Shown: positions 1 to 64,000 of the stretch, in pieces
Layout: every line of letters begins with the position of its first letter
Numbering within the stretch: the first letter of the stretch is position 1
NCBI GenBank assembly: GCA_036172245.1
Contig: JAYWIR010000098.1
Span: 1-64,000 of the forward strand
Length of the DNA stretch: 64,000 nucleotides
Direction: 5' to 3'
Origin: Raillietiella orientalis
Taxonomy: Eukaryota
Notes under the pieces: model-generated
Told to the model about the DNA's origin: nothing
The model's database searches: none
Seen by the model: the letters and a program-made list of their open reading frames with translations, nothing else
Program-made: the position numbers and the translations under genes

Positions 1-1660
1 TGTGGCGAACTGCAAGTCACAAGCCGATCGATCACGTCCTGCACAGCACCGAACTAGATTATCGCATTTAGGCTTTCCGAGACACATTGATTTCTCTGTC
101 CGTTCACCCGTTGGTGCGATTTTCTTTAAGAACAAGGCCAAGAATTTAGGAGTCTACATTGGCGACGACTCCGCGTCGAAACTATTGTGCACCGAGATCC
201 TAGGGAAAACGGCCAAGGAAGCAGCCAAGTACACCCGAACGGACCTTGGGATGAAGCGAAAGGCTAACATATGGAACCGAGTACACCTTATAAAAGTGCA
301 CTTCGGGGCGGCCTTCGCGAGGATGAACAATGACACCACGAGGGAGTTCGACAAGCTGAAGAGAAAAACACTGTGGGGCCACTATTGCCCAAGAGTCTGT
401 CTAAAACCCCTGTGTGGTCCCAGGGAAGAAGGCGGTCCCGGGATGAAGTCGCCTGCACACTCCATAGAAATCATCGATACGCGAAACATCCTGGACATTG
501 CCACTCACTGGGGTTACTGGCCGTATGCGGCGCACAGGGCCTGCGCGTTGTTGTTGAACAACTCGAAACCCCTGATGACTGCGCTGCTAGGCCGAGCATG
601 CGAATGGAAAAAAATCGACCCAACCTGGACGAGGGAGCAACGGCTGGTGCAAAAGCACAAAATCAAGATCGCGCTAAGCAGTAGGGAACTCTGGCAGGAC
701 GAGTCCATCCTGGTGATCCCTTGGATGCTTCCTGTCCCGCCGGACACGAGAAACTGGATCCACCAGAGGTCCAGAGTTACCATTCAACGAATTCAGGTGT
801 GGAAACGAGGAGGGTACCTACATCACGCTCGTATACTGAGGTATATAGAGATCATGTTAGGGAGGTTTACCCACATTACTCGCGGAGTGTGGTTCAATCA
901 CAACGACTTTGCGTGGTCCAGGGTAACCAAAACATACCTTTGAAGACTAATTCAAGAAGAAAACAGTGATACTAGTTCCCTCCAGGAAGCCGCCGATCGC
1001 TACGGGAGTGACCGGATCAACCTGTTTGCGATTAACACGACGCTCTGGAGGAGTGACCTTCCGCCAAGCAACCAGGATGACCTCCTGATGTTTTATCATG
1101 GAGGAATCCAGAGTGGGTCATGATTGCAGCACTACACCGGAAGAATAGAAGATCGAGACTGCTCAGCATGTGGAGACGTCGACACGAGACTTCACGTCTT
1201 GACGTATCCTACATTGCTACATGACTGGCTGATCCTCAAAAGGATCATCGGACTCACCACCAGGTCCGTAATGGAGATCCTCGCCGCGATGTTTCAGGGG
1301 GATGGTAATGTTCCCTGTTACAATCCCATGGTGAGGACGACCATCGCCCTCTTCATCACCGCCATACTTGTGCTGTGTGGAAAATGAGAAAAGCCAGAAA
1401 AGGCGCACCATCGACGGACATCCCTCAAGGGCTCCTGAAGAGGGAAATCGGCATTAGAAACTGTGGGAAAATTTAAGCCTGGACGTACCGATTAATCCTG
1501 AAGAGGATAGAATACGACGCTCGGGACCAAACAGCAGGAAACCCACCATGAGTGCAGAACTTGTGAGATCCCAAGGACTTCATAGTAGTAAAAAAAGTGC
1601 TGATGGTATGGATGAGATTGTAGTGTGAATGTTTTAAAAGAAAAATTTTAGAAAAAAAAA
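1..1660 (+). mobile_element. Family B L1/Tx1-like element, 3' part: end of APE, ~1.44 kb internal deletion, post-RT region, CCHC finger, A-rich tail
   Basis: 1-118 nearly identical to 62003-62120, then jumps to match ~63566 onward (YLGVCIGNDS-like). CSACGDVDTRLHV finger at ~1160-1200. A-rich tail 1636-1660. Confidence 0.85.
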
Positions 1661-3052
1661 TTTACCCCACCCCTCGTGGGACTTGGGGAAAACTGCCGAG
1701 TCGGCGATGGAGCGACTGCATACAGCGTGCTTTTGCTCGTCGCGACGCTGCTTTTTACGGCTTTCGTAGCCTTTGCCGAGGGTCTTGCGCTGCAGTGGGG
1801 CTGTCCGGAACTCGGAAGGGACAACGGAACGGGGCAAGAAGTCTTCGCACTGTTGCGATCTTCCTGTTTTCCTACCTTTCTCTCCAGGGTGTTACGAAGA
1901 TTTCCTGGTTCCTGGCTCGGAGAGGTGCCTGCGACTTCGGCAGAGAGGGAAGGCACGGCACGCGTCAAACCCTCGCGCCCCTTTTTAATTGGCTTCCCCG
2001 CCGTGACTTTCCCCTTTTGGGGCGTAGCGGGCGGGGATGCTTTCTTTTCATCCGGGGATCGCTCGTGGTTTTTTGCGAGTTTTTGCGGAAGACGTTTTTT
2101 ATTTGCCACTGCGGCTTTTCGTGCAGTGGTTTCTTGAATACGAAGAATTTCCGCTCCGGCTCTTTTTCTAGCAAGTACCGGGCACTTTTTGATTTCGTGC
2201 CCGGAATCTTTGCAATAGAGGCATCTTGGAGAGGGGCACTCTTCAATTCGGTGCCCATCCTTGCCGCACTGCTTGCACGTGCGAGTCTGGCCTATGAACC
2301 ACAGGTAAACGACCGTGCCGTTCACTTGCAGCTGCTCAGGCACAACACGCCTGTTCGTGCCGGTGATCCGCGCGGAGGCTTGTCCAATGTGGACAGAGGG
2401 GAAATCCTTTGGAGGATTTGACCTCCTCCACAGAGCCTGCACGGTGGCGAACTTCGGCAGCACACTTACGACATCGCGGTCGGAGATTTCCGATTCGATG
2501 TCGCATAATTGAACGACAAAAGAGTCGTCCATCGCGGTAGGTAGGACTTCCTTGCCATTCATGGTCAACGGTGTACGGAGAAGGCGCTGCACAAGTGCTG
2601 CGTTGTTGCACCGAATCTTTGTATATTCCATCCTGCCAGCAGGCATTATGACAAGGAGTTCCTCCTCGCGAACGCCGATCCGGACGAGCTCATCATTGAG
2701 CTCACGACCGATTCTCCCGTTGAGGGGCCCACTGACCTTACAACGGAGTGCAGGCATGTATCCTGATGACACATATTCCTGGAACTCCGCATCTCAGGGT
2801 CCTGGTCTTTGGGAGGTAACGGCGGCGTAACTCCTCACCGGGGGCGAGGAAACCATTACGGAAAATGAGGCCACTTCATGTGCAGCTGAAGTGCATCCAG
2901 TGGCTTGCTCCTCCACACTATCCTGTGTACTGGCCATGTTGCCCTATGTGACTTGGCAGATTGCACAGAAACACACAAGTGCGAGCGTAAACGCAGGCAC
3001 AAAGTTGCCCGATCGTTGGCGCGAATAGACGCGGAAACACTTCTGCACTGTA
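1661..3052 (-). mobile_element. Family A element, 5' part: 5' UTR plus ORF1 (ATG ~2856, one stop), cut off by the family B insertion
   Basis: ORF 1648-2772 has CKQCGKDGHRIEEC and CLYCKDSGHEIKKC knuckles and is homologous to ORF1 at 21435-23057. Degenerate 5' motif CAGTGCAGAAGTGTTTCC at ~3033-3050. Confidence 0.85.
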
Positions 3053-5020
3053 CGAGCGCAGCAGATCGAGCGTGTCTCGGGTGGACGGCTGCTGTGGCGT
3101 TGCGGCACCGTTAAATCTTGCGGTGTCGCGTTCCTGCTTTGTCCAGCTGTCGAGGCTGCGGCGAAGGGCGTACGGTTCGATAGTGCCGGTCGCGTAGGGC
3201 AGTTGACCATTAAGTTGTCCGACTCCAACGATCTAATCATTACCAGCGTGTAGTCCCCAAGCTGCAGCGACGCGCTAAGGTCAAAGGCAAGGAGAGATTC
3301 CTACCTTACCCTGAGGCGCGAATATCTGGACGAAGCGGAAGTGCGCAAAGTGCACCTAATCGCAGGTGACTTTAACCTGCGCCTGCTGTCAGGTGCGTCC
3401 GACACACTTCGGGACCGCGTGAACGAGCTGTGCGCAGAGATGCACACGCGCAACTCGTTCGTGGGAGATCCGGAAATGGCCGACAGCGTAAATCACGTAT
3501 TTTTTCAGCCGCACCTATGCTCACGCGTAAGCAGGCGCGGCAAGTTACCGTCGGAACTGTCGGACCATGACCGGATCGTACTCCAGGTGAGCCCACACGA
3601 TAGGGGTCCGCCGTCATTTGCGTGGCGCTTACCGGGGGACTGGCTGAAACTTACAGAAGCCGCGGAGCATTTACAATTATTCATACGAGGTTGCAGCTTT
3701 TAGACGCTTCAGGACTGGGACCGCTTCAAGCGCTCTGTCCGGAATTTTTGCGACGAGTTCCCTATGAACCTCCTGCCTCCCGGGTTTGGTGAATGCTTGC
3801 GTAACGAGAGATGTTATTTACAATCTCGATGTCGCGACACTAGACGTACGCAGGCTAGACGAATACCGTGCGGGAGCCAAAAGGCAGGCGTGGCAATCCG
3901 TGTCGGTTAGCTTACTGGACGACCAGGGTTCGGAGCACTCAGCCGCGCCCACGTAAAATGCTTATTAAGAAAATTCTAATCCTCCCTGTACGCGCGCGCT
4001 TCACTGGAACGAATGTCTCGCGACTTCTTCTTCCGGAAGGCGCTTCGGCGTTCAGGGAGGAAGATAGAAAGACCCTCGACGAGCCTTTCACGATGGGCGA
4101 GATCATCTCGGTCATCTGAAAGCTCAAGAGGCGGAAGGCTGCAGGGTAGGACGACTTACCAGCGGAATTTTTCCAATGTTTCGCGGCAGAGTTCACTCCC
4201 CTGGTGAAGAAACTCACCTTGCTTATCCGCGAAACGGGCGACGTCCCCGCCTCGTTTCGTTCGGCAAAGGTGCGTCCCTTCCCTAAGGGAGGAGACCTTC
4301 GGAGCATGAGCAACTGGCGGCCGATTACCGTGATAAACGCGGACGCCAAGTTGCTGAAGAAATTGTGGGCTGAACGCCTAAGGCGGTTAGCGGAAAGCTT
4401 CATTAGCCCGGAGCAGACATTTGCTGTTCCCGGGCGGAGCATGGATGCCAACCTGTTCCTCGCCAGCATTTTTTTCGTGCTTTAACAGGAAAGGGTCAGG
4501 ATGGGCAACCGGACTTTCGGAATTTCTGCCGCTAGGAAACGGGATGTTTGGAGAAGGGGAGGGAGCCCTTGCAGTCGCAGTCAATTTGCATAAAGCATTC
4601 TACTGTGTCGACCAGAGGCTCCTCCTGGAGCTGCTGGAACGCTTGGGCTTCCCGGTATCTTTGTCGACCTACCTGCGATCCTGCTGGCGCGACGGTTTCA
4701 TCCAGATCTTTTTCAGTGGACACACCGTGCACGGCGTACCAATGCGACGCGGCATACGGCAGGGCGACCGTGACGGCCCCACAGCAGACTGTGATCCCTT
4801 CCCGTGCCCTTCAGATCTTGATTTTATATATTTCTTGTTTTTTGTTTTATTTTTTTGTTTTGTCCTTGGCCCCTCTGCTGTCGTGGTGGACCGAGCCGGA
4901 ATAGGAACCAGTGACCCGGCAGGCTTTATTTTGTATCCCAGTGAGTGGCCGGACCACCTGGTCAGACACCAACGTTTGATTTATTCCAAAGAATGAACGC
5001 CCCGGCGCAACCGGTTGAAA
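3053..5020 (+). mobile_element. Family A element, 3' part: APE remainder, RT N-half, ~1.7 kb deletion at ~4768, 3' UTR and terminal hairpin
   Basis: GDFN, SDH, NWRPIT and GIRQGD motifs. Inverted close copy of 46095-49740. Ends AATGAACGCCCCGGCGCAACCGGTTGAAAA. Confidence 0.85.
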
Positions 5021-5558
5021 ATCGAGTTCACGGATGGCGAAGCCCGGAGATTTTGGCGAGGATGCTCCGCCTCCTCCGAATTGCTAAGTTAGTCGGCCGG
5101 CAGCCTTCAGACCTTCCTCGGAGGCCCTTTGTTAGGCGGGAGGAGCTGAAACTCCAGTCTCGGATGATCCGAAATCGCGGACATCAGCCGCCCTCTCCTA
5201 CCTACTCGTGAGAGCAGGTGTTCATCCAGGAACGCATGGTCCGACGATCTCTCCATCCCGGGCTCACCAGCAAGCAAGTTTTGTACGCGCACGGGCGCGC
5301 ATACCTCGCTCACCAGTTGCTTCTCCCTCAAGCGGCATCTCTCCTCTGTTAACAGGTGGACGTTGAAGTGTCCTGCAAGGAGGTGTGACACGTTAGGGCC
5401 GGAGTCAGCGAACCAGCGGATGCGCAGGCCATTCAGGAATGCAAGTCGCTGGGCGTAATGCCGTCCGCCGTTCGGCGCGTAGATGTTCGTAGCGACCAGG
5501 TAGATCAAATCGGACCACTTGAGGACAAGTTGGCCTACTCTAGCTTCCTCGTCGAACT
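5021..5558 (-). pseudogene. APE endonuclease fragment (target of neighbouring insertions)
   Basis: NIYAP, AGHFN, SDH motifs; inverted copy of 45555-46094. Confidence 0.85.
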
Positions 5559-5559
5559 A

Positions 5560-7100
5560 TACAGACGTGTTTCTCCTGCACTCCTACAGCTTCAGTCAGA
5601 GAAGTCTTCTTAATTTCTTTTCGTGTGATAAAGTGTGTGGCGCATCGTCGGTGTCCCATGGCAGAAATGTCAGCGGACCCCGCAATGGAGATTGGAGTAG
5701 GAGAGGCTAGTTCCTCTCCCCAGCCCAAGCATGGTGAAGTCGATTGCCCTCACGGAGGCGAGGGCATCGGTTCAATTGAAAAAGGGTGCAAGCGTGTCCT
5801 CGGAGCCAATTTCGCCAACGAAGAGGACTTGGAGCCCCGTGGCTGCAGCACCATGCGCTGATGCCATGGCCGAACAAACAGCATATAAGGAACAAGGGTA
5901 CAAGCCGTCCCTCATCTCTAAGGTAGGCAATACTTTGTTGGAAATACCGCTCGCAACTTTGACAGGGAGTTGCAGCGGCTTAATGTGAAAGAAGAAGAGT
6001 TGGAAGGTCTTTCAGTGTAACGCGGTGGTCAGCGGGTGCAGTTGACTTGTGAGGATGCAAGCCTGGCTGAACGCCTGCTGAACACTTCCATTTCGCTGGA
6101 AGCCAGAAAGCTCTTCCCTCTAACTTTGGACCGCTCGGTAGTGACGCACCTCACGGGAGTTACCCTCCGCATGTCGACGAAGCGCGTGCAGGAGGAACTC
6201 AGCAAGTTCGGCACGGTTCACGCGCTTTGGAGCAAGCCCAACGTCTTACAGTCCTATGGAAGGCTGTTTAGTGGCATGGCCGCAGCGCGTGTAACCGTGC
6301 ATGAGAACGGTGGGTTACCTCACAAGTTAGACGTCGTCAAAAAAGAGGTCGATATCTGGTACGTGGGGAAACAAAAGTTCTGCGGACACTGCGATGCAAC
6401 AGGGCACCTGAAAAAACGGTGCCCCCACATCGAGTGTTTCTTGTGCGCAGAAAAGGGCCACCTCCAGAAAATGTGCCTAAAGCGGGAGACTTTGGCACGT
6501 CCCACTACGAAAAAAGCTCAGGGGCACGCGCATACATAACTTTGAAGCCCAAGGAGGCTACAGCAAGGCGTAGCCAGAAGACAGAATTTGAAACCTCTCA
6601 GCAAACGCCGGTGCTCACATCGGGACGGAGGTCTTAGCGTACTGACGATGCAGTTAATGGAAACACAGCTGCGATGGCGAACCCTCGCCATCGCAGCGAA
6701 GATGTGGAGCACCGCTTGGTGCATTCCGGCCCGCCTTCTGGCCAGGTGTGTGTCCCGCTGCGAAGGACTCGCATCGTGTATTTTGTGCCCTGGCCGGAAG
6801 ATTCGCACATGCAGTCTACTGCTCGGGCGCATGGCAACCCTGGCAAATGAGAACCACTGGAGGGTTTGTGGCCCTGCCAACTCCTCCGCTTGGCTGGAAG
6901 AGACTGCTGGCACCTGGGTTAAGCAGAACCAAAGGTGCGGAGACCCGATGAACTGTTTGCGAGTCGGCTTTTACTCTCGCCGAACTCTCCGTGAAATTCT
7001 TGAATTTCCACCGCGTTGCACGTGGGCGGAAGGCACACTTCTTGTTTCGGCAATGCCCTTCTTCCAAAGAGCGGTACACGAAAGCCGGGTGCGGGTGAAC
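5560..7100 (+). mobile_element. Family A element: 5' UTR, ORF1 (ATG 5658, to ~6590) fused by deletion to a post-RT ORF2 segment
   Basis: 5' motif AGACGTGTTTC; knuckles CGHCDATGHLKKRC and CFLCAEKGHLQKMC; RDGGLSV motif from ~6620. Confidence 0.8.
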
Positions 7101-9229
7101 GCTTTAGGCTGCGGCGTCTGCCAGTTTCCTCATTGTCCACACGCTTAGATCCTTCTGCTTGCCCGCTATCCGGCAGGAGACTTGCATTGTCGGCTTCCGG
7201 ATGTTTTGAAGTCCCCTTCGTAAAAAGAACTCCGCCGTGGCAAGTGGGGTCGTCTCCGTCCAAGTGCTCCTGACGGGACACACGATCATGTTTCGCAACG
7301 TGCAGCGGGTGTACATGCCGGTGCGCAGGCGGTTACAGGATTCCCGACTGATGTGTTTCAACTTTACCCACGTTCCAACTGTTTCTCTCAGCCATACTCT
7401 GAAGTTGGCGGGGCTGCAGGCCATCCACCCGTTCTCCTGTGCCAGGGTGGCCATGCGTCCCAGGAGAAGTCCGCATCTTCTTATTTTCCGGCCGGGGCAC
7501 AGAAGGAAATACGCGAGTCCTTCAGTCCCGGACACACGTCTGGCAAGAAGACGGGCTGGAACGCACCAAGGGGTGCTCCACATTTTCGCTACGATGGCTA
7601 GAGTGCGCCACCGCAGCTGTGTTACCATTAACTGCATCGTCAGGACGCTAAGACCTCCGTCCCGACGTGGAGCGCACAAATCTTTCAATGGCAAACGAGG
7701 CCTCGCGCCGCCCCACAGTGCGATGCGTAGGAGGTCCTTTGTTCTTTCTTTCAGTTCACGGGGTATAAGGCAAACAAAATGCAGAGGGCGAAGGAGGAAG
7801 GCCACGAACGCGTTCCACACCGCGGCCCGTTCCGGCAAATGAAGCATCCCTTCCAGGAACGGGCCGATCGCTGACTCCACTTTGTGGAGACGAGCTGACC
7901 AGGCTTCTGACTAGCAGAACTCCCCCAACGGAAAGCCGAGGTACTCTAAGTACCTCTCCGTGAAGATCCCCAAGCGGATCCAGTCAGGCCGTCCGACCCA
8001 CGTCGCACCAACCGCTACCACCGATGACTTCGCCTTATTTAGCCGTAGTCCAGTACCGCGGCTTAGGAGATCGAAGAAATCCTCGACTGCGGCTGCCGGG
8101 GCGGACATGGGCAAAAGTAGCAGAAGATCATCGGCGTGAGCCGCTACGGCCGGCGTACCTGCACACGAGCTTGGCAGGGCAGCCAATGTCACCCTGTATG
8201 CTCTCAGCACCAGTTCGAAATAAGTGCTAAAGAGCAGGGGACTCAGGCGGTCGCCTCGCCGGATGCCGCGCCTCATCGGCACGCCGAACACGTGCTATCC
8301 TCTGAAAAACAAGTTGATGATCGCATTGCGCCAGCAGGCGCGCAGGTAGACCGTCAACATGTCCGCGAATCCCTTGAGATCCAGGAGCTACAAAAGGAAT
8401 TCCTGGTCCACGCAATCGAACGCTTTGTGCAGATCGACTGCGATCGCTACAGCCCCCTTTTCTTTCCGGTGGTCCCTACTTGCTGCGCTGGCGCCCTCAA
8501 ATCAGGTTTCTCGACATTCCGTTCTTTTTCCTTTTTTTCCTCGCGTTTCACATGGAACCATGTGCTGGCGAGGACCAGGTTCGCTTCCATGCTTCGCCCG
8601 GAAAAAGAGTACGTCTGTTCCAAGCTGACGAAGCTGTCAGCTACCAGCACCAGTCCCGCAGCCCACAGCAACTTTTCGTCCGTGTTCACAGTCGTGATTG
8701 GACGCCAGTTGCATAATTTTCTGAGGTCTTTTCCCTTAGGAAGGAGCCTCACCCTGGCTGACCGACACGAGGCGGGAACATCGTCTTAGTTTCGGATCAG
8801 CCGTGTCAATTGGAGCACCAGGAAGGTCAGCTCTGCCGCAAAGCTCTGAAAGAACTCTGCCGGCAGGCCATCCTCCCCTAGCGCCTTATGCCTCATGAGC
8901 CTTTTAATCGCGGTTATGATTTCACCGGCCGTAAAAGGCTCGTGGAGGCTTTCTTTCTCCTCCTCTTCTATGGCCGGGGCTCCATCTGGGAGCAAGCGCC
9001 GCGAGACGTTTCACTGCGTAGGTACCCTGGCGTAAAGGGAAAAGTAAAATCCACGCACGAGGCGACGTATCGATGCCGGGTCCGAGTATTTCTGGTCCAG
9101 GTCGTTTAGCACGATGGGCGGACCGGTTTGCTAGGCTTGAAGCTCGGCCCCGGCTTTGTACTCGGCCAAGCGACGGATGTCAGGGATCCTCGCGGAAAGA
9201 GAGACGTGCAAATACGCCCTTTCGTTACG
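7101..9229 (-). pseudogene. ORF2 linker/RT/post-RT fragment; 3' part of the element interrupted by 9230-14849
   Basis: EPFTAGEI, NWRPIT, AAHADD, DGGL motifs; same subfamily as 42251-45151. Confidence 0.85.
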
Positions 9230-12200
9230 GAAGGACGTGTTTTACCGTTGCTCCGTCAACAAGTACCGGAAAGCGGTTTCTTCTTGGACAGTGTGTGTTG
9301 TTTCACATCGTTGGTGTCCGATGGCATCGCTGCCAGAGGACGCCACTATGAAGGTAGGCGTGGAGGAGGCTAGTCCCCCCGCACGGCCCACTGGATCAGG
9401 TGCATTCGCCCCGGAATCATCCCCGGCAACGCCGAAGACGTGGAGCGCTATAGTGCCCGCGCCGAGCGTGAAAACCTCGGCGGAGCAAGCGGCTTACAGG
9501 GCCTCAGGATATAAACCATCTTTGGTTTATAAAGTAGGACCCCTGTTTGATGGTCGCACCGCCCGGGCCTTCAGTAAGGCACTACAGGACTTTCCTGTAA
9601 GAGAAGAGGTTCTTGACGGCCTCTCCGTACTCAGAGGGGGGCAGCGCTTGGAGGTCGTCTGCAAAGACGTAGCCTTAGCTCAGCGCCTGATAAACACTTT
9701 GTTGAATGTGGATGGCCGGAAAATCCTACTGGATAGCATGGACCGCTCCGTAGTGGTCCATCTAACTTGAATCAGAAATCGGATGACGCGCTCGGCGCTC
9801 AATTCCGAGTTGATGAAATACGGCGAGGTACACGCGTTGTGGCCAAAGCCCACCATCTTCGAAGTATTTAATAGCCATTTCGCAGGCCAGGCTGCAGCGC
9901 GTGTCACTGTCAATAAGGGTGCTGGGTTGCACCACAAACTGGAGGTCGCGAAATAATCCATCGACCTCTGGTACGTGGGAAAACCCCGCTATTGTGGCTA
10001 CTGCAATGCAGTAGGGCGCTTGCGCAAGCGGTGCCCTAACATTGAGTGCCACTAGTGGGGGTTAAGTGACACGTGCGTCGTGTGTGCCCTAAACGCCCCA
10101 CCCCGGTGCCAGCTGCTGCCAAAAAGGGGCAGGCCAAAAAAATTAACAAGGTCAAAAGACCTAAGCGAGAAACTGGCCGGCCCCAGCCGCCATCTCCTCT
10201 TCCTCTCACCCATGCGTCGGAGGATAAAATCGCGGAAGACGCGGGAGTGGAGGAGGGATGGCAACTAATAATGGCCAGCAAGGAGCAACAAGTGGTGAAA
10301 GAGCCACTGAAGAAAACGGAGAAAAAGAACACGGCCGGCAAAAAGAATAAAGCCGCGTCGCTTTCAAAAAAATCCGCGAGTGCTCGGTAGCACTGCATCA
10401 CGTGATGGTTCCTGAGGCTGCCACCAGGGGCGACGAGCCTCCCCTCGCCGATTCCGCGGCGCCCGAGGTTCGCGACGACGAACCCTCTGTTTACACAGAG
10501 AGTGAGCCGCCCGACGCGCGCGCCGACGGCGTGGTAGCCGCCTTCGCGTAGGCGGCGGAGGAGCTCGCGGTCACGCTGCCAGAGCGTTAGAATCCCTCAC
10601 GCAAGGCCGTGCGCAGGCCGGTCTGCCGAAGAAGGCCCCCGGAGGTGAGTGCGACCTGGGGGCCGTAAGTGCATCCTCCTCGTCGGAGGTATCCCCCCGG
10701 AAGACGGGACGCAAGTCCCAAAAGCCGAGGAGGCGCCTCCCCTCCACGAGGGAGGAGGAGAAGCAGGAAGCCAATGCCAGCGTGGGAAACCCGGAGGTGG
10801 AATTCCCACTCACGAAAGGCGTCGTGCAGGCTACCCCCATGGAGGAGGGTGAACAGGTAAGCGAAGTCCTCCCGCTAGTCGCAGAACCTGAACAGCACGC
10901 CTCCATGGAGAAGTGGGAACAGGGAGGCGCGCCTACAACTCAGGGTGAACCTGCCGACGCGCCGTTACCCATGGAGGAGGGGAACAAGGTGCCTTCCGCC
11001 CCTGACCCCTCCCCTCCACCTACCGTGTCGCCTTAACAGGTGTTGGACGACGCGGAGCCAATTTCCCAGGAATAACACCTGGGCTCGACTGTCGCCGTCG
11101 GATCCGCGTGGCCAGTTGGAACGTCAACGGACTGCGCGACGACGGCAACAGACGAGATACAGCCGACACCCTGCGTGACTTCGACCTGGCCCTGCTGCAG
11201 GAGATCCACGTGATCACCGCGAAAGACTTCCAGGAGATCGAAACGATCGCGGAAGTTCGGCTGTATTTGCGATGGGGCGCCCGCAACACCTGTGGGGTCG
11301 CGTTTTTCTTGAAGCCGGCCATCGACGCTGCCGTGAAGGGCGTGCGCTTCGATGACAACGGTCGGGTTGGTCAGCTGAATCTCAGCTGGTCCGATTCGAT
11401 CGACCTGATTGTCACGAATGTGTACGCCCCGAGCGGAAAAAATGGGTACAGCGACCGTACCAGGCTGCTGGAAACCTTAAGCGCGAATGGTTGGCCGATA
11501 CGAACGTGCGGAAGGCACACCTGATAGCTGGATACTTTAATCTTCCTCTGCTGTTAGGTGAGCCCGAAGCACAAGAACGCACGGCCAAGGAGTTGTGCGC
11601 TGCCGTGCGCACGCGCAACTTGCTGGCACAGGTGGAGGGAATGGACCGCAGCATAGACTACGTCTTCCTGAATGCCTACCTGTGCTTGCGGGTCGGCAAA
11701 CGGGGAGACTTGCGTCGACAGTGTCGGACCATTCCCGGTTAATCGCAGAAGTATGCCCGCGCGACAAGGGATCCCGTCCAGGGCGTAACGGCTGCCTGGG
11801 GACTGGACGCGGCTCACAGGTGCGAAGGAACACCTTCGCCAATTCCTGAGAAGAATCACCCTGCGAAATCTCGCTGACTTGGACCTCTTTGTGGAATCGG
11901 TCCGCGAGTTCTGCGAGGAGTTCATCTTGCACCTCCTGCCCACCGGATTTGGGGAAGGAGCTCGCAACCATACGGCCTATTTACAGGTCCGTCGGTAAGA
12001 GAGAAACCCCAACGTCCGTCGCCTAGCAAATTACCGAGCCGGGGCCGAACGCCAAGCCTGGCAATCCGGGTCCGGAAACGCTCGGCCCCACCCGCGATCA
12101 GGCACCTCGTGCGACGGTTCTACTCCTCCCTTAACGCCATGGCACCTTCAGAGCGTGATGCCTCGCGGCTCCTGCTTCCGGACGGAGCTTTGGCAATAGG

Positions 12201-16480: not shown

Positions 16481-16489
16481 GCACCAGGG

Positions 16490-51885: not shown

Positions 51886-54050
51886 TTGTCAACCGGATAT
51901 GCCGGGGAATTTATTATTCTAATTAATATGAAATTAGTTAGTGATGTCTATTGATATGAGTTTGTAATAAAAATTCTTGGTTTTCCTACGCTGGCATCCG
52001 TGTCGAATGGCGGTGCCGAGACCGGTTCGGTCCATTTCCAAGGCGCGTGTAAAGGGAAAACTCAAACAAAAAGAAACAAAAAGAGAGATAACGGGGAGGG
52101 AAACAGTTATATGGGGAGAGGGGGGAGCAGGGCAGGGATTACTGGGCGCCTGGGTCGGTCCTCCGCATCCTGTTAAGGATGCAGTCAAGTTCGGTTTTTA
52201 TAGTGAAAGGTAGACGCCACCTTGTCGCCGTCTCTAAAGAGATCGTCGTCCAGTAAATGGCGTCCCTGCATCTTGGACCTCTACTTCTGGCGTGCCACCA
52301 TCGCACGATGCCGCGCACGCAGGAGAGAACTGCTAGAGATGCTGCGGGGCGCAGGCCGTCACGCAGAAAGAGGCGACGGTAAATGTCTTTAGGGTCGCCT
52401 ACTGGAAGATGGAGGATTGGGCGATTTGTCTCCAGACTCCAACCAGGGCGACACGCTCGAGAGCGAGATGCGAAAAGGCTTCTCTTTTACCGCACTCGAC
52501 ACAGCGGGCATCCATATTCCCCAGTGTCCAGTGAGACAGGCGTGCTGTGCTTAACAGTCCCAAGTGCAGAAATAGCAACGCCGTCTCCTGCCACTTCAAC
52601 GGAAGTTTGCCGCAATCCCAACACGCTGAAGGCCACTTTACCTCCTCCGGAGGTATTGCGAGCAGCTCTACCCAGCGCGCAAATCCGTGAGGCAGGACGC
52701 TCGTTGTGGCAGCGTCCGTTAGCTCTCCAGTCGTCCATGCCTTTAAAGGTTTTTTCCTGCCTCGGATGAGGCAGGACAATTCCCACGATGCCCGCTCGTT
52801 GCTGCTTCTAATGTTTTTCAGAAAGGACAGAACGGGGGCAAGGTGGGTAAAACAAGCCCACAGAAACTTCCGAGGCGTGTTGATAATCTCCTGCAGCGGC
52901 TGTCGAGCGTACGGTCTTCGACGTAACCTGTTGTGTTCCGCCTCTCTCGTGCCGTTGATCTCCGCCCTCGCGGAGGTTGACTCCTCACGCCAGGCAGTGC
53001 AATTCGCGGGTAGGTAGGAGATCCATGTATTCTCTTTAATAAGTGAGACCATCCGACGCAAATGGAAGCCAGACTTGTTGCAGGGGCTGCGCTGGTAAGC
53101 CACGAGGAGCGAGGGCAATCCCTCGCAGCCGGTCGCTCTTCTGGCATGGAGACGAGTCGGTACGCATCATGGCGTCATCCATTAGTTAGCCGCTAGGACT
53201 AGCTTCCGTATTGTTGTTTGTAGTTGGATGCGCTCCAACGTAAGGTGGCCCAAGCCATCATCCCTGCATGGAGCGCACAAGTCTTTCAATCGGACTCGCA
53301 ACCTCGCTGTGCCTCAAAGGGCTTTCTACAAGAGATCTTTCTTCCGTGTCTGTATGATGGGAGGTATGGAGCATACAAAAAGTAGAAGGCGGAGAAGAAG
53401 AGCCGCAAAAGCTTTCCACACCGCGGCCCGTTCCTGCAAGTAAAACTTGCCGTCCCGGACCGGGCCGATCGAAAACTCCACCTTTTGGATACGGTCGGAC
53501 CAGGCTTCGGCAACATAGAAGTTTCCCAACGAAACGCCAAAGTACTTCAAGCACCTCCTCTTGATGATCCTGGAGCGGATCCAGTCCGGCCGTCCAATTT
53601 AACGCCGTATTTTCAAAAAGCAGTGGTGATGTCGAAAGAATCAAGGATTTCTCTCTGTTTACTTCGAGGACCGTCCTGCGGCGCAGCAACTCAAAGAAAC
53701 CTTCGAACGCCGACGCCAAGGTGGACCCTAGGAGCAGGAGCAGATGGTCGTAGGCGTAGGCCGACACGGCAGTCGTGCCGGGACAAAAGGTTGGCACGGT
53801 TGCCAGAGTCTCCCTGTGTGCCCTCAGCACTCGCAGCAAGTGAATGCTGAAGAGCAAGGCGCTCAGACTGTCACTCTGGGGGATGCCACGCCGAACCGGC
53901 ACGCCGTACACGTGCCGGCCGCTAAAAGTGATGTTTATCACAACGAAGCGCCAGTAGGAGCGCAAGTCAGCCCGTAAGACGGCCGGAAATTCCAAGCGTT
54001 CCAGGTGCTCCAGGAGGAGTTCTTGGTCGACGCAGTCGAACTATTTACGC
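51886..54050 (-). mobile_element. Family A ORF2 3' half plus 3' UTR, related to 25546-27764
   Basis: FDCVDQ, PPEEVKWP, CVEC...H; AATAAA 51910-51915 plus hairpin. Confidence 0.85.
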
Positions 54051-54054
54051 CGGT

Positions 54055-55977
54055 TACAGAGGACGTGTTTCATCGCTGGTCCTTATGTCGGGATTGTCCC
54101 TAGGTGTAGACTTCGTGTGTGGTGGTGGTCGATCAGACAGCAATGCCTGACCTGTACCACCAGTGCGTGTCAGGGGACGGTGGCAACGTCGCCTCTAGAG
54201 AAGTTGGAGTGCAAGAAGGCGGCGGCAACGTCGCCTTTAGTGGCGAAGGAGGTAGTGGCGTCCGTCCCCACACAACTGATCCCCACTGCAGCGCGGACGT
54301 AAAGCGCCGTCGTCTCGGAGCCATCGCCTGCAGCAGCGGCGGAATTATCCGCCTATGTGGAAGAGGGGTACAACCCATCGCTTTTCTACAAGGTAGGAAA
54401 TTTGTATTCTTCTGAGAGTGCGCGCACCTTTTCGAAGATGTGCGCTCTTGATGTAAAAGAGGAGGAGCTCTGCGCTATGACCATTCGTAGCGGGGGGCAG
54501 TACGTAGAGGTGATCTGCAAACATGCAGATCTGGCCCAACATCTGCTCAAAACCCCCGTGGTGACGGAGACACGCAGGCTTCTTCCCATTACGGCGGACC
54601 ACAGTATGGTGATCCACCTTTTAGGAGTTACCGCGCGGATGCGGAAAGAACAGTTACCCTCCGCGTTGGGAAAAGAAAGCACGGTGCATGCGGTATGGAC
54701 CAAGCCTAGTACTTCCAAGGAGTATACCATAGTTCAGTGCGGCCTCCGTGCTTCCCGTAAAACCGTTCGGTAGGGCTCTACCCATCCTTACAAACTGGTG
54801 GTCGGCGGAGAAAGCGTCGACCTCTGGTACATAGGGAAGCCCAAATACTGTGGCTTCTGCAACACGTCGGGACACCTCAGAAGCAGGAGCCCTAACGTAC
54901 AGTGTTAGGTATGCGAGACAATGGGCCAAACGAAGGAAGTGTGTCCGCAATCCGCTGTGCGCGTGGTTTCCGCGAGGAACCTAAAAGAACCCGCGGGGCT
55001 GCTACAGAAAAGGCTGGCGGAGAAGGCTGCCGCTCAAGCTGTGCCACCCACACCCGTGATCCAGGCAGCAGCCGACACCTTGGCAACGAATGCTGAAAAG
55101 ATCGACAGAAGCGGTCAGGTGTCGGAGTGGCAAGAAGCCACAGCGAAAAAGCAAAAGTAGAAGATAGAACGACGAATTGAAAAAAAGCTCGCCTACCAAA
55201 ATAACAAACAGCAGGTTAGCGAGAATTTAAAAGAATGCAGCGTCGTCTTGGAACGCGTTTTCGCCGAACGCTCCAAGGTAGAAATCGATGCAACCTACGA
55301 GCAACTCACTGTTGAAAATGTCAACAGCGTGGGGAGCGAACCGGCGGAAGCTTCCGTCATCAAGACCGTCAGCAATGACGCCGCCTTCGAGCGTGCGGCG
55401 GAGGAACTGGCTGCATCGTTGCAGCCAGACCCCTCCAAGGCTAGCAAAAAGGCAGTGAGGCGTCCGGCCTCCACCGAGGAGTCGGTAACTTCCGACTCCG
55501 AAGCGCAGGCCGGAAACGGAGTTTCCATCTCCGCGGCACCCCGCCGGAAGGCTGGAAAGAAGTCCAGCAAACCTCGGAAAGCCCCTCTCCAGGCCGAAGG
55601 CGTGGAGATGACTTCCGACTGCGAGGCTGCCATGAGCGTGGGAGAATCCCGGGACTCGTCACCCAAAAGACCACTACGCACAGAGACGGAGGAGATGAAG
55701 GAAGTTGAAGCCGGAATGGTACTTGAGGTGCCTGAGAAGGGCGAAACCATAATAATCATCTCACTTGCCTCTTCCGAGGCGTATTCTTCTACACCGTCAT
55801 CTTCCCGGCAGCAATGTTTGGAATGTCCTCCCGCCGTCGTCTGTGTATCTTTGTAAGGAACGTAAACGGCATGACAGAAGCAGGCTGGAGACGAGACATG
55901 GCCGCCATTCTAGGAACGTTCGACCTTGTGCTGCTGCAGGAGATGCATGTGATCTCTGCAGAACAAGCGCAGGAGAT
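54055..55977 (+). mobile_element. Family A element, 5' part: 5' UTR, ORF1 (to 55856), start of APE
   Basis: AGAGGACGTGTTTC; EEGYNPSLFYKVGN (same subfamily as the ORF1 at 51529); LLQEMH. Confidence 0.85.
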
Positions 55978-58900
55978 TTTTCACCCGGTCACGCCTGGGC
56001 GTTTATTTCATATAAATACAGCATAAATAAATATATAAAATAAACCAGTTGCGGACCATGCCTTCAACCAACGACGGCACAAGTATCAAGAGAACATTCC
56101 CACAAACCGTTCAGTGTAATTCTGGATCGCTGGCCAGAATTACACAGAACGGTTTGTGGGAAACGGGAAAACATACAAACAAAAACAAAAGAAAAAGAAA
56201 TCAACGGGGGACGCAGGGACAAGGGTCTTTGGAATCGCTCTGGTTCTCTCCGGCATAATAGTGATGGCACCGGTATTTTAGCAGAGCGAGCGGGGAAGGG
56301 GTATGACTGGGCTTGAGGACGTAGTTCTCACCGGATTAAGCCGTTTCTAAAAGTCTGTAAATCGGCGGTGGATGACGGCGATGTCCTGTTTGACGTCGTC
56401 ACGAAGATTTCCATGGATTCTGCTGCAAACCGGTGAGCCTCCCTTCGCTGCGCTGACAACTCCAGGGCGTAGCGGGCCTTCACGATGGCGCGAATGCAAA
56501 ACATGGTTGCGAAAATCGCGCCTACCGAAAATCGATTTCTGCTGAAGAAGCGCTGCAGCAAATCAATGGCAGTGCCTCCGTGCGGCAGGATGGCTGAAAT
56601 AGGCCTTGGCCACAGTTCACAAAGGTTATTGCAGTACATCAAGAGGTGCGGAAAAGACTCGATCTCACCGCACCTCTAACAGTTTGGCGCAGCAGCTCCC
56701 CCGGAAACGATGCTTCCCTGCCGATTACAGTGGAAACTCCAGTGTGAAAAGAGCAGCACATCTTGTTCCCACTTTTAGAAGAACACAAAGCTGTCCAAAC
56801 AAACGGAAGGAACCACTATCTCTTCGCGGGCTACAATTAAATATTCACTACACCGAAGCAGACCCTTCACCCGATTACGAGAAGTGGCAGTTTCCACCAG
56901 CTCCTTTGTCGTCCAGCAGCCGAGAAACATACTGACTCCCGCTATAAAGCAGGAGAACTCCCATTTCGCCGGGAAGCAACTGTCCTTGCTTGCCCTGAGT
57001 GCAGACAGCGCTGCAGCGAGCAATGAGGCGGCCAGACGATTCGACATCTTCTTGTCCTGCATGACTTCGTCCATTGGATGACTGAGGAGAAGTCGCAGGC
57101 ACCGAAGATCTTCCGGGCGCGTTCCTTCGGAAGCTGCCCACGATGAAAAAGATTCCTTTCGCCATGCATCAATGTTCATAAGGCGGCAGGAGATCCAACA
57201 TTGGGCTTCCAGCAGTGAGGAAAAATGCCTCAGCGGGAAGCCAAACCCTATTCTGGTGGGCCGAAAGTGGGGTAGCAACGATAGCAGTCCCTCGCTTCCC
57301 GTGCAGCGCCTCAGTATAATTCGTGCGGGTAAGCACCACGGCGTACACCACAGCTTGCCACAGAGCAGCAGCATTCGAAACTCCACCTGCAGCTCAATGC
57401 TTTTCAATTTTAGGATGCCCATGCCTGCATCCTGACGCGGCGCCACCAAGTCTTTAAGTCTTACGCGGGATCTTGCAGCGCATTACAACGTTTTCCGTAG
57501 AAGGCGCTGAGCCCAGACTTTGACTTCCTGGAAGTGTGCACAAACAAAAAACAGAGGGCGGAGAAGGGGGGCAACGAAGTTGTTCCAGAAGCTGGCCCGT
57601 TCCGGCAAGACTAACTCGCCTAGTGAGAACGGGCCAAGTGCACGCTCTGCCTTCCTAAGGCAGTCCGACCAGGCTCCTGAGATGCAGAAATCGTCCAACA
57701 GCACGCCAAGGTAACTTACGTACCTGCTCTTGGGGATCCTTAGGCGGATTCAGTCGGACTGCCCCTCCCACGTCGCTCCAACTGGAACAATTATGCTCTT
57801 GCTCCTGTTGACGCTCATGCCCGCACCGCGACGAATCAACTCAAAGAAGTTTTCAGGCGATGTCGCCGGGGTGCACTTGGGCAACAGGAGAAGCAGGTCG
57901 TCGGCATAGGCTGCCACGGCCGGAGTACCAGGACAGTAGCTCGGCAGGTTGGCTAGCGTCAGCCTGTAAGCTTCCAGCACCATTTCAAAATAGATGCTAA
58001 AGAGCAGCGGAATTAAGCTATCGTCCTGCCTAATTCCTCGCCTAACCGGCAAGCCGTACACGTGACAGCCACCGAAAACAATAGATGTAATCGCGTGGCG
58101 CCAGCAGGAGCAAAAGTACGCCAACAGGGATGCCGGGAGGTCTAGACGTTCCAAGACATCAAGAAGAAGCTTTTGGTTCACGCAATCGAAAGCTTTGTGC
58201 AAATCGACTGCTATCGCCATGGCTCCCGGGGTTTGTCTTTGCGACCCGCGCCTCCGTCGGTGAGAGTTCGAAGGCGTCGCTTCCGCACGACGATCCATTG
58301 CCACGCGATGCTGGAATTGCAGCCATGTTCGGATGAATAAGAGGTTCGCGTCCATGGACTGCCCAGGAACAGCGTAGGTCTGCTCCGACTTACCGAAGAC
58401 TCCGCGATCCTCCCCATCCGCGCCACCCAGAGTTTCGAGAACAACTTGACGTCCGAATTCACTTAAGTGATCGGACGCCAATTGTTCAGTTGCCGCAAAT
58501 CTCCTCCTTCCGGCAGGAGACGCACCTTCTCTGAGCGAAACCAGGCGGGGACATCGCCCGGTGGCTCGCATCAGCGACGAGAGTTGAAGCACCAGGGGGA
58601 TGAGCTCCGCCGCAAAGCACTTGGAAATTCTGCAGGGAGTCCATTTTCGCCTGGCGCTTTTCGTCTCTTGAGCCGCGAGATAGCCGAAGAAATTTCCTCT
58701 GCCGTGAATGGCTCATCGAGACGCGCGCGTTGCTCCTTGTCTACAACACGTCCATCAGTCCGCAGAAGCAGCTTAAAGAAAATGCGTTCCGTTGGTGCCT
58801 TTGCATAAAGAGAAGATTTATAGCTTCTGATTATCCGTCGCACGTCAACTGGAGCCGAGCATTCCCGGTCCTGGTCGTCGAGCAGAATTGTCGCTCCAGA

Positions 58901-59935
58901 CTGTCAGACCTGGCGCTCAGGCTTGGCCTTGTACTCGGATAATCGACCAGCGTCCGCGCGCCTTGTGTAAGAGCGGGCCTGCAGAAAATGTCTGCTGTTG
59001 GCTACACCATCTATGAAGCCGCGCGGAAGCTCGTGCAAGGGAAACCGGCAGCAAAACTCGCGGACCGATCTTTTCAGATCGTTCCAGTCAGCAAGCTCAC
59101 TTATGGCGAAGCCGCAAAGGTACTGGCAAAGATGCTTCGCCGCCTCCGAGTGATCTAGTCTGTCTGCCGGCTTCCTGCTAGCACAGTTTGGAGGTTCCTT
59201 GCCAGGCGGGAGCAACTCGAACTCGAGCCTGTTGTGGTCTGAATGTACGGACGGCATGGGACCTCTCCGACCCACTCGAGAGAGCAAGTGTTCATCGAGG
59301 AATACATGGTCCGGTGATGTCGCCATGACAGGGTCGTTGGCGAACAAGTTGCATGCGTGCACGGATGAGTACATCTCTTCCACTAGCAACTTTTCTCTTT
59401 TGTGTGCGCTTTCTCGGAAGCAGGTGCACGTTAAAGTCCTCCGCAATGAGATGCGCCACAGTAGGGTGAGAACGAGTTAGCTACTGGCTCTGCACGATAC
59501 CGAAGAACTCAATCCTTTCGGCTAATCGTCCAGCACCGCTCCGCGCGTACACGTTCGTTACGATAAAGTCGATCGAGTCGGACCACTTGAGTACAACCTG
59601 TCCCACACGGCCTTCCGTGTCGAAACGAACGCCGCGCACCGCTCCTGCCAAAGTTCCTTGTACGAAGAAAGCGACGCCGCACGTACGTGTAACGCCGCAC
59701 CTATAAAGTAGCGTTCCGCACGCACGCCGTTCGATTTCGCAGCCTGGTCATCCGAGATGCTGTGAACCTCCTGCAGGAGCGTCAAGTCGAAAGCGCGCAG
59801 AGCGTTAGCTACTAGTCGCCTCTTCTCGTCTTGTTCGAGCTTGTTGACGCTCCAGCACGCCATGACTACACGACGAGAAGACGCGATTGCCCTGATGAGG
59901 GCTGGGAAAACGACGCCGTGGTGCTCACCTCACCC
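55978..59935 (-). mobile_element. Family A element, 3' part: ORF1 end, disrupted ORF2, 3' UTR
   Basis: CWSVN, SDH, YADD (~57900), AATAAA 56002-56007 plus hairpin. Confidence 0.88.
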
Positions 59936-59952
59936 GGCGAGCGGGCGGTAAG

Positions 59953-62277: not shown

Positions 62278-63837
62278 TTGAAACACAGGACACACCTGTT
62301 TGCAAATATGCAATTCGGGGATAGGCGCTTGAGGCAGAAGGCGTTCCGGGAGCTGAACATCCAAGATCGCACGCTCTCAAAGTACTTCGATCAGTCAGAG
62401 AGTCGGTACGTCTTCAGCAACATAAAAGGGGAAGTCGGCGTGCAGCAGAAGAGAAATCTGGCAACAGATATCTTCTGCATCCAGTACGACGGTAAAGAGC
62501 GACAGTCGTCGGTAGATATCGTGGAAGCCTTTCACAGGCATTACACGAAACACTTCAGGCGTCACCATCTCTGTCGCTCTAGTCAACAAGCCTTTCTGAG
62601 CTATCTCGAGAAGAGGACCGTCGACTTCCAGCGGGACAGACTGGAGGAGGAATTCTCCGAAGTCGAGGTGAAGACTTCTTTTGGACAACTGCGCAAGGAT
62701 GTGGCGGCAGGCCCTGACAGTGTACCCATCACGCACTATCAGCGGTACCTGCATTCCTTCCTGCGTTTGTTCCATCAGTTGACCCTCTGCATCCGTGAAG
62801 AAGGCAGACTATCTGAGTCCTCCTACGAGAGTAGGATGAGATTGTTACCAAAAGGAGGCGTCCCAACCAAGATCGCTAAATGGAGGCCAATCTTAATACT
62901 GAACTCCGATGCCAAGTGTTTCGCGAAGATCTGGTTCAACAGCTTAGGCAGGGTCATGTCGAAGCTCATCTCTCCGGTCCAAACGTGTGCAGTCCCTCTA
63001 CGTCACATGTCGGACAATGTCAAGTGTGCAAAGGCCACCGTCGGGCTCAGCCGATACGTCGGCGAGAACCTAGTGATTGTGTTCACTGACATGGAGAAGG
63101 CTTTTAACTACATCGACCATGGGATGCTGCTGAAGGTTCTGGAGAAGCTAGGCCTTGCTGAGCACTTCAGAAACTTCGTAAGGGTTATACTTCAAAACCA
63201 GTACTGCCGAATCAAAATCAACGGCCAGGAGACGGCAGCAATCCGGATGGAACGGAGAGTCCGGCAGGGCGATTCGCTAAGTCCGATGCTGTTCATCATC
63301 TACATGAAGGCGTTGTCGTCCTTTATCGAGAAGAGTGGACGAATACAACGCATGACTATCGATGGCCAGCGTCTCACCCATCTGGCATACGCTGATGATC
63401 TACTCTTCTTTATCAAGGGAGAGAGAAATCAACGAGCGCTTCTGGATGTAGTAGACCAGATGGATCTAGGCCTGGGTCTAAAGATCAACGCCCAGAAAAG
63501 CCAGCTCTTGCCCGTTGGAATGCTTGATCTCTCCGCTCTAGCGGGGAGAAGATTCCGAACGGTAGACAAGGTCAAGTACCTGGGTGTCTGCATTGGCAAC
63601 GACTCCGCGTCGAAGCTATTGTGGCCGGAGTTCCTGAGAAAAACAACCAAGGAAGCAGCCAAGTACACCGGAACGGACCTTGGAATGAAGCGGAAGGCCA
63701 ACATATGGAACGGAGTACTCCTTTTAAAAGTGCTCTTCGGGGCGGCCTTTGCAAGGATGAACAAGAACACCACGGGGGAGTTCGAAAAGCTGCAGAGAAA
63801 AACACTGTGGGGCACTATCGCCCAGGAGTTCGACTAA
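62278..63837 (+). CDS. Family B reverse transcriptase, 519-aa open frame
   Basis: KWRPI, DMEKAFN, VRQGDSLSPMLF, YADD, KYLG. Confidence 0.88.
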   Translation: MKHRTHLFANMQFGDRRLRQKAFRELNIQDRTLSKYFDQSESRYVFSNIKGEVGVQQKRNLATDIFCIQYDGKERQSSVDIVEAFHRHYTKHFRRHHLCRSSQQAFLSYLEKRTVDFQRDRLEEEFSEVEVKTSFGQLRKDVAAGPDSVPITHYQRYLHSFLRLFHQLTLCIREEGRLSESSYESRMRLLPKGGVPTKIAKWRPILILNSDAKCFAKIWFNSLGRVMSKLISPVQTCAVPLRHMSDNVKCAKATVGLSRYVGENLVIVFTDMEKAFNYIDHGMLLKVLEKLGLAEHFRNFVRVILQNQYCRIKINGQETAAIRMERRVRQGDSLSPMLFIIYMKALSSFIEKSGRIQRMTIDGQRLTHLAYADDLLFFIKGERNQRALLDVVDQMDLGLGLKINAQKSQLLPVGMLDLSALAGRRFRTVDKVKYLGVCIGNDSASKLLWPEFLRKTTKEAAKYTGTDLGMKRKANIWNGVLLLKVLFGAAFARMNKNTTGEFEKLQRKTLWGTIAQEFD

Positions 63838-64000
63838 AACCCCTGCGTCGTCCCAAGGAAGAAGGCGGTTCCGGGATGAAGTCTCTTGCACACTCCATAG
63901 AAATCATGGATACGCGATACATCCTGCACATTGCCACTCACTGGGATGACTGGCCGTGTGCGGCGCACAGGGCCTACGCGCTTTTGTCGTACAACTTGAA

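Follow-up and report, generated by a model that had tools for sequence, protein, structure and literature searches.

How does a stretch of 64 kb come to consist of long interspersed elements (LINEs) lying inside one another, most of them pointing against the element that they interrupt? We addressed this question with positions 1 to 64,000 of the forward strand of contig JAYWIR010000098.1 from Raillietiella orientalis (NCBI GenBank assembly GCA_036172245.1), hereafter referred to as the window. All the counts, clusterings and p-values given below refer to this one 64-kb window, with each insertion counted once. On balance, we consider it probable that this LINE-only island was built by repeated target-primed reverse transcription (TPRT), carried out by stringent-type L1-like families that have fixed landing sites in the second open reading frame (ORF2) of their relatives and nick the host sense strand.

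The window is filled with L1-like LINE sequence

Mapping by tblastn and tblastx divided the 64,000 nt into 26 segments from about 22 copies of L1-like LINEs (Table 1). Direct homology detected by tblastn, tblastx and self-blastn covers 57,561 of the 64,000 nt, and the 20 uncovered gaps, 6,391 nt in sum, all lie within element bounds, at a 5′ untranslated region (UTR), a 3′UTR or the variable tail of ORF1. A preliminary description of this DNA had pictured it as nested LINEs throughout, with every resolvable element end adjoining another LINE; both statements are borne out, the latter at 25 of 25 adjacencies. The junctions that it listed were all recovered to within a few nucleotides, and 5020 and 46095, which it had equated, indeed represent one junction in a duplicated block. 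Our map adds the junctions at 27764/27765 (the partner of 25545), 7073/7090, 16473 and ~45500. No satellite arrays were found in the 64-kb window, for which a tandem-repeat scan returned just five small rows.

The elements follow a common plan: an ORF1 that bears a putative CCHC knuckle is followed by an ORF2 encoding an apurinic/apyrimidinic endonuclease-like (APE) and a reverse transcriptase (RT) domain and by a conserved 3′ AAUAAA-plus-hairpin end. Among the 15 longest ORFs, Pfam detected RVT_1 (PF00078) in four (best E = 9.5e-31) and Exo_endo_phos (PF03372) in two (best E = 4.4e-12), and the APE used as a tblastn query gave 20 high-scoring segment pairs across the window. The ORF1 translations carry CX2CX4HX4C motifs, for which the sole Pfam match was a weak one to zf-CCHC_2 (18.1 bits versus a cut-off of 27); no RRM was detected by Pfam in ORF1 when the 15 longest ORFs were scanned. 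In the full-length copies A, N and H, ORF1, APE and RT follow one another in collinear order. There is no intact ORF2 in the window, where the longest RT-bearing ORF has 521 aa, and the copies are therefore old.

The window was built by at least eight related L1-like families and one distant family, C, which has 40–45% nucleotide identity to the others in the RT-core comparison. The RT-core tree contains the clades (M, M2, N), (M3/E1, E2), (B, B2), H and (A, G2, F). The closest named proteins, L1-type ORF2s from plants, a tick and a fish, show 24–30% identity, and one metagenome protein reaches 60%. Within the window the best pairs are 87–97% identical, the value of 97% applying to 133 nt only and pairs of at least 700 nt reaching at most 91%.

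To compare positions between elements, we use A-coordinates. They run along element A, which spans 5,909 nt on the minus strand (window 23232 to 17324) and is the only full-length copy whose ORF1, of 566 aa, is open. Here ORF1 occupies ~98–1795, the APE domain ~1969–2694, a linker the stretch to ~3100, RT that to ~4600 and the C-terminal part that to ~5450, followed by the 3′UTR.

Three families each reuse one nucleotide site

Alignment of the linker and APE regions revealed three families that each return to a single nucleotide site, in hosts from different clades and invariably in antisense orientation. Site beta, GG(G/A)ATTT(G/C)G in the codons for GFGEG, was used three times by the N family (N, N2 and N3); N-family 3′ ends are predicted to come after ...GGGGATTT(C/G)GT, read on the host sense strand. 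The N2/M2 and N3/M3 junctions at this site are identical. The 3′ junction of N lies 11 nt downstream of them, which would fit a target-site duplication of ~11 bp, and its 5′ junction 13 nt further downstream, 20–24 nt beyond the N2/N3 junction, with a small target deletion left behind. Site gamma, ...C(A/G)GT|, where the bar marks the junction, was used twice by the B family, B in M3 and B2 in M4 ending in one alignment column. Site alpha lies just past the QE(T/I)H codons of APE, and has two G-family insertions, the ends of this family being predicted to come after ...GAGATT; the end of K and the start of H2 overlap there by 15 nt.

As counted from the same alignments, sites alpha, beta and gamma are occupied in 2 of 11, 3 of 12 and 2 of 12 cases, respectively. 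If insertion were random, the chance that a second hit falls on the same strand within 2 nt of the first would be ~4e-4 per pair. The idea that these LINEs use their relatives as a landing pad, proposed in the preliminary description, is thus supported inside the window in a sharper form: three families, the same nucleotide site for each, and hosts of different clades.

Insertions cluster in the APE-linker region and are mostly antisense

Of the 14 internal host breaks, 12 fall at A-coordinates 1900–3060 (p = 2e-7), an interval that starts at the ORF1/APE boundary, reaches into the APE-RT linker and makes up 19.7% of the element; when distinct sites are counted, the figure is 8 of 10 (p = 7e-5). 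The clustering persists although 5′ truncation should favour the 3′ regions as a target. The strand changes at 20 of the 25 adjacencies. With the duplicated H/J junction counted once, we obtained 13 antisense events (C into G, G1 into H2, G2 into K, H into J, R into J2, N into M/Q, N2 into M2, N3 into M3, B into M3, B2 into M4, F into N2, M2 into S and K into B2) against 3 sense events, namely A into N3 and the head-to-tail joins E1–E2 (30526) and E2–F (34898). The Q/P boundary at 16473 is a possible fourth sense event, so that the two-sided p is 0.021 or 0.049.

These counts agree with the earlier estimates of about 12 antisense to 3 sense junctions, most of them in the APE domain or the APE-RT linker. 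The orientation ratio is 13 to 3 or 4 by event, and it ranges from 9:1 to 9:4 when distinct sites are counted. Although real, the excess of antisense events is modest in statistical terms, and the position of the breaks is the stronger signal. GC skew, considered in connection with R-loops on a G-rich sense strand in the hot region, was weakly positive in A only and inconsistent in N, H and F, and this idea was dropped.

Element ends and target-site duplications

Eleven 3′ ends share AATAAAYG, a short hairpin and 2–5 terminal A residues (Table 1). The hairpin has seven predicted pairs with weak covariation, two of the seven being changed on both sides. By their 2–5 terminal A residues and conserved 3′ hairpin, the main families resemble stringent-type LINEs; the C family differs in having an A9 run, which ends at 1660 in C1. 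A metagenome scan for the AATAAAYG-hairpin motif returned five loci, none of which (0 of 5) had LINE homology by tblastn, and we regard these as chance matches. At the other end, eight elements (G1, R, N, A, N3, N2, H and K) begin with a common motif around GACGTGTTT. Their full-length 5′ ends, at 3052, 5560, 9230, 23232, 25365, 42250, 51631 and ~54057, all adjoin other LINE sequence.

The insertion of B is flanked by an exact 14-bp target-site duplication (TSD), with copies at 25532 and 27765, and that of H (46096–51631) by CTCGA on both flanks, a duplication of 5 bp; A has an imperfect one of 6–7 bp. N (9230–14849) lies between Q and M, the two halves of one host, whose canonical coordinates are contiguous but for the small target deletion. 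The window thus contains TSD-flanked TPRT insertions at fixed sites and in antisense orientation.

An apparent inverted microhomology at the flanks of A proved to be the host's own sequence and was rejected. Pairing between the 3′ tail and the target exceeded 300 shuffles at one of the 11 junctions, that of M2, and this idea was dropped. The last 40 nt of M2 resemble the downstream flank (45112–45190) with a local score of 18, reached by 0 of 300 shuffles; the likeness may reflect local microhomology at priming, or chance.

Independent insertions versus copies of older ones

The identities of inserts and hosts are incongruent. At site beta, the inserts N2 and N3 are 90.9% identical while their hosts M2 and M3, which belong to different RT clades, are 63.1% identical; conversely, M and M2 share 82.0% and N and N2 72.2%. 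Across the beta junction, identity falls from 87–99% to 66%. Of the gamma hosts, one, M3, shares 86% identity with E2, and the other, J/M4, belongs with A, G2 and F (65–74%). At the alpha junction, K is 66.5% identical to H, as against 88.4% for H2. We also determined ratios of nonsynonymous to synonymous substitution (dN/dS) in frame and, as controls, in the two other frames. The in-frame values were 0.39 for M–M2 (controls, 0.98 and 1.03), 0.30 for N–N2 (1.20 and 1.31) and 0.35 for B–B2 (0.88 and 1.39), indicating that most of the divergence arose in active lineages and not after neutral duplication. N2 and N3 differ neutrally (1.29), as is expected for two recent insertions from one master. 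Taken together, the incongruent identities and the dN/dS values argue against segmental duplication, except for the block 3053–5556.

This block is an inverted copy of 45560–49742, 89–91% identical to it, with a 1.7 kb deletion. The dN/dS values of H–H2 (0.52; out of frame, 0.70 and 1.32) and J–J2 (0.47; 0.51 and 1.25) are near neutral, so that the H2–J2 block is probably a segmental duplicate of the reverse complement of 45560–49742, and segmental duplication also acts in the window. The order of family types on the left, H2-J2-R-M-N, equals H-J-S-M2-N2 in the reversed right block, which hints at an older duplication despite the signatures of selection. These features would suit a passive graveyard, in which gene-poor, low-recombination DNA is so saturated with LINEs that new insertions land in a LINE and recurrent junctions are copies made by segmental duplication. 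Nesting itself requires no targeting where the whole window is LINE, and the orientation excess is modest. The graveyard is at odds with insertions at the same nucleotide in hosts of different clades, with the incongruent identities, with the gap between in-frame dN/dS of 0.30–0.39 and out-of-frame values of 0.88–1.39 (M–M2, N–N2, B–B2), and with the crowding of breaks into a fifth of the element that truncation should not favour; we regard it as unlikely, with a small but appreciable chance of being right.

Independent hits could also be mimicked if a few ancestral composites, such as an N-type element in an M-type one or G carrying C, had been copied whole by retrotransposition in trans, or if the inserts had been homogenised by gene conversion. 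A mobile G::C composite would explain why a C-family element sits in both G1 and G2, and the neutral N2–N3 difference would fit recent copying or conversion, although two recent insertions from one master predict the same. In contrast, M3 continues for 2.7 kb up to its own 3′ end and resembles its neighbour E2 (86%), not M2. It is therefore no transduced flank, and transduction of host sequence at the 5′ side was rejected on the same grounds. Moreover, the 5′ junction of N is offset on the host side by 20–24 nt relative to N2 and N3, and K and H2 are different hosts. Copying of composites appears improbable. Chimeric joins in a collapsed repeat region are a concern for any such sequence, which is hard to assemble, and a comparison with X1, the one public DNA run found for this sequence (at a share of 0.12, with no RNA run found), yielded 253 short contigs (188 at 90–95% identity and 18 at 99% or more), none of which gave usable, independent evidence for a junction. 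The whole insertions are nevertheless flanked by the exact 14-bp (B) and 5-bp (H) TSDs, the host halves are contiguous in canonical coordinates, and nothing in the identities of the best internal pairs suggests collapse. We find an assembly artefact scarcely credible.

Besides the duplicated block and the shared order of families, several points weigh against targeted insertion. The replicates are few (3, 2 and 2). G1 and G2 do not overlap, and their status as a single family is assumed. The 3′UTRs of B and B2 are about as diverged (55–69%) as their hosts (~60%), and the independence of these two insertions therefore rests on host clade and dN/dS. The N-family TSD, put at ~11 bp, is inferred, and N2 and N3 show the 5′ junction only. 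Over distinct sites, the p-value for orientation ranges from 0.02 to 0.27. No target motif common to all the families was seen at the junctions in the window, so that specificity would have to be private to each family. Finally, the evidence comes from one window, and copies elsewhere may lie in unique DNA.

A model of LINE insertion into relatives

Insertion targeted to relatives remains our preferred reading, and it could proceed as follows. The APE endonuclease of each family would recognise a short site that is held constant by purifying selection on the ORF2 of its relatives. The first nick would be made on the sense (coding) strand of the resident ORF2 and the cDNA primed from the resulting 3′-OH, which places the insert in antisense; the second nick would follow 5–15 bp from the first, the TSDs across the insertions ranging from 5 to 14 bp. 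As the sites are conserved coding sequence, every relative would stay a target, including the N family's own superfamily (M and M2), and the island would grow on itself. In the light of the missing tail-target complementarity, cross-family motif and consistent GC skew, endonuclease specificity private to each family appears to be the most economical reading. The pattern would be completed by the head-to-tail joins that link M3/E1 to E2 and E2 to F, by the segmental duplication at 3053–5556 and by a few deletions. The head-to-tail run is possibly due to Zepp-like insertion at 3′ tails or to template jumps within one event.

More tentatively, and with a greater chance of being wrong than right, these elements might form a guild of sister L1-like families engaged in LINE-on-LINE homing. 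Each would own a private site in ORF2 codons that relatives could alter only at the cost of ORF2 function, such as those for GFGEG, and would always nick the coding strand, so that the newcomer lies in antisense and the resident ORF2 is destroyed. Such homing would serve as a safe haven and at the same time as a means of competition between lineages. As by-products there would be gene-free islands of inverted LINEs that grow by themselves, which the host may use as a centromere or as a source of double-stranded RNA.

Segment map and further features of the window

Table 1. Segments of the window, with element positions in A-coordinates (A), and 3′ ends that carry the common terminal motif
Feature	Position	Strand	Description
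C1	1..1660	+	3′ part of C-family LINE; A9 run at its end; antisense in G1
G1	1661..3052	-	G-type full-length element, 5′ part: 5′UTR and ORF1 with CCHC knuckle; 5′ end adjoins H2 at site alpha
H2	3053..5020	+	H family, APE position A2152 to 3′ end; ~1.7 kb internal deletion; 88–89% identical to H
J2	5021..5556	-	APE-linker fragment A2275–2810; host of H2; 91% identical to J
R	5560..7073	+	Full 5′ end, adjoining J2 in antisense; ORF1 ~5940–6704, then jump to C-terminal ORF2 piece 6616–7073 (~A4470–4900)
M	7090..9229	-	3′ half, A2901–5019, of the host of N; own 3′ end lost at deletion breakpoint 7073/7090
N	9230..14849	+	Full-length N-family element; antisense at site beta, between M and Q
Q	14850..16472	-	5′ half (~A1250–2890) of the host that includes M; ends ...GGGGATTTCGT beside N 3′ end
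P	16473..17323	-	N3 continuation (A2524–3320) downstream of A insertion; cut at 16473
A	17324..23232	-	Full-length, 5,909 nt; sense in APE (GDFN codons) of N3; imperfect 6–7 bp TSD
N3	23233..25365	-	N-family 5′ part, A1–2469; 91% identical to N2; 5′ end adjoins M3 at site beta
M3 fragment	25366..25545	+	A2880–3059, between N3 insertion (beta) and B insertion (gamma); 25532–25545 is TSD copy 1 of B
B	25546..27764	-	B family, 5′-truncated, A3312 to 3′ end; antisense at site gamma; exact 14-bp TSD AGCCCAGCTCAGGT
M3 continuation (E1)	27765..30526	+	A3051 to 3′ end, opening with TSD copy 2 of B (14 nt)
E2	30527..34898	+	5′-truncated, M3 clade (85% identical in RT); head-to-tail on M3/E1 3′ end
F	34899..40058	+	Truncated at A647; head-to-tail on E2; 3′ end adjoins N2 in antisense, 24–28 nt downstream of site alpha
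N2	40059..42250	-	N-family 5′ part, A1–2190; 5′ end adjoins M2 at site beta, junction identical to N3/M3
M2	42251..45151	+	Host of N2, A2883 to own 3′ end; 82% identical to M, 63% to M3
S	45152..45500	-	C-terminal ORF2 fragment A4876–5193; M2 3′ end adjoins it in antisense; boundary with J approximate
J	45501..46095	+	APE-linker part ~A2225–2810, host in A/G2/F clade; ends at H insertion (site delta); TSD CTCGA 46090–46094
H	46096..51631	-	Full-length H-family element; antisense in J/M4; 5-bp TSD
M4	51632..51886	+	J continuation A2815–3059, starts with TSD CTCGA; ends at B2 insertion, same alignment column as B in M3 (gamma)
B2	51887..54052	-	B family, ~A3700 to 3′ end; antisense at site gamma; 5′ side cut by K 5′ end
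K	54057..55978	+	Full 5′ end and ORF1; APE cut by G2 after its first 177 nt, at site alpha
G2	55979..59950	-	G-type, A1945 to 3′ end; antisense in K at site alpha; 5′ side interrupted by C2
C2	59951..64000	+	C-family 5′ part (ORF1, APE, RT ORF of 521 aa); antisense in G2; runs past window end
3′ ends	5020, 14849, 30526, 34898, 40058, 45151	+	AATAAAYG, hairpin and short A run
3′ ends	17324, 25546, 46096, 51887, 55979	-	AATAAAYG, hairpin and short A run

C1 lacks 1,430 nt of the RT region present in C2, with a join at 132/133; its positions 1–133 are 97% identical to 62003–62135, and 132–567 are 87% identical to 63566–64000. The possibility that K is the missing 5′ part of H2 was rejected, K being only 66.5% identical to H. 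Twin priming as the origin of the head-to-head pairs was likewise rejected, as the arms belong to different families, their canonical coordinates overlap, and both halves of the host are present in the case of N. The breakpoints at 7073–7090 (R/M) and 16473 (P/Q) have an element end on neither side; they look like deletions or rearrangements that took the 3′ end of M and the 3′ part of N3. In the 3′UTR of E2, a weak tblastx match of 72 nt (34628–34699; 32 bits) corresponds exactly to canonical positions 2814–2885, the stretch between sites delta and beta, and represents either chance or an old captured fragment.

The GC content of the window is 56.5%, and the observed/expected ratios are 1.01 for CpG and 1.08 for GpC. 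The CpG ratio is 1.01 although the LINE copies are old (65–91% mutual identity), and neither methylation-driven CpG decay nor a bias of the kind left by repeat-induced point mutation is visible. Stop-free frames of 346–502 aa without a Pfam match occur antisense to or out of frame with the LINE genes at 30461–31915 (-), 14935–15975 (+) and 41201–42709 (-); they are probably by-products of GC-rich sequence and not genes. The C-terminal tail of ORF1 contains a 57-bp tandem repeat of about three copies (78–85% matches) in N3 (24194–24370) and N2 (40775–40948), which encodes repeated 'AALDKVAE..PAAT' peptides. In run X1, the bin 34340–35006 had a summed contig word depth of 717, compared with 0–14 elsewhere in 23001–43000, which suggests that some short stretch close to the 3′ end of E2 or to the start of the F ORF1 is present in very high copy in X1 or is shared with something abundant.

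Relation to known systems and implications

Zepp elements end in poly(A). According to published accounts, Zepp of Coccomyxa/Chlorella and ZeppL of Chlamydomonas form clusters of L1-type LINEs that have grown by insertion into existing copies and mark centromeres, with one Zepp cluster per chromosome in Coccomyxa and binding of CENH3 by the clusters in Chlamydomonas (PMC8226300, PMC3446292, bioRxiv 10.1101/2025.03.28.645958); Zepp clusters are described there as tandem arrays, mostly of 3′ ends (PMC8226300). The window is likewise made of LINEs only, with copies inserted into pre-existing copies and a LINE on either side of all 25 adjacencies. It differs in having just two head-to-tail joins (30526 and 34898) and no tandem array made mostly of 3′ ends. 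Instead, it has 13 antisense events, most of them at fixed internal ORF2 positions, at least eight diverged families, eight full 5′ ends, and 3′ ends with a hairpin and 2–5 A residues.

Site-specific LINEs are found in rRNA and snRNA genes, microsatellites, telomeric repeats and transposons, Tx1L residing in a DNA transposon. Those with an APE, of the Tx1 and R1 clades, target multicopy sequences, transposons among them (PMC4640811). The window resembles these systems in that an APE-encoding LINE occupies a fixed nucleotide of a multicopy target in one orientation (three times for N, twice for B and twice for G). The likeness rests on the insertion pattern and not on RT phylogeny, the nearest named proteins being at most 30% identical. 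Unlike in those systems, the target in the window is a conserved coding stretch within the relatives' ORF2, and several sister families have a private site each. A conserved ORF2 site of related LINEs as a LINE target did not turn up in the literature that we searched, which is not proof of its absence. Stringent-type L1 elements with a conserved 3′ stem-loop have been described for one monocot L1 lineage and L1-1_CR (PMC3472496). The elements in the window share such a conserved 3′ hairpin end, presumably needed for template recognition by RT, but their 3′ sequence differs, the covariation is weak (two of seven pairs), and no partner short interspersed element was seen. In plants, some families of long terminal repeat retrotransposons insert preferentially into older members of the same family and into particular regions of the element hit, events termed 'autoinsertions' (PMC6911290). 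This process is integrase-based and regional and avoids coding regions, whereas the LINEs in the window hit coding sequence with nucleotide precision. The pattern in the window is best read as a variant that combines Zepp-like nesting with Tx1-like site specificity.

How LINEs recognise their own kind has so far been unclear, and the window suggests an answer: each family would nick the sense strand of its relatives at a fixed site of its own, set in conserved codons of ORF2. If this were true genome-wide, it would provide a mechanism for self-assembling LINE islands, which are candidate centromeres, and a case of direct interference between retrotransposon lineages. The families would then also constitute a natural set of APE endonucleases with distinct sequence specificities for comparison.

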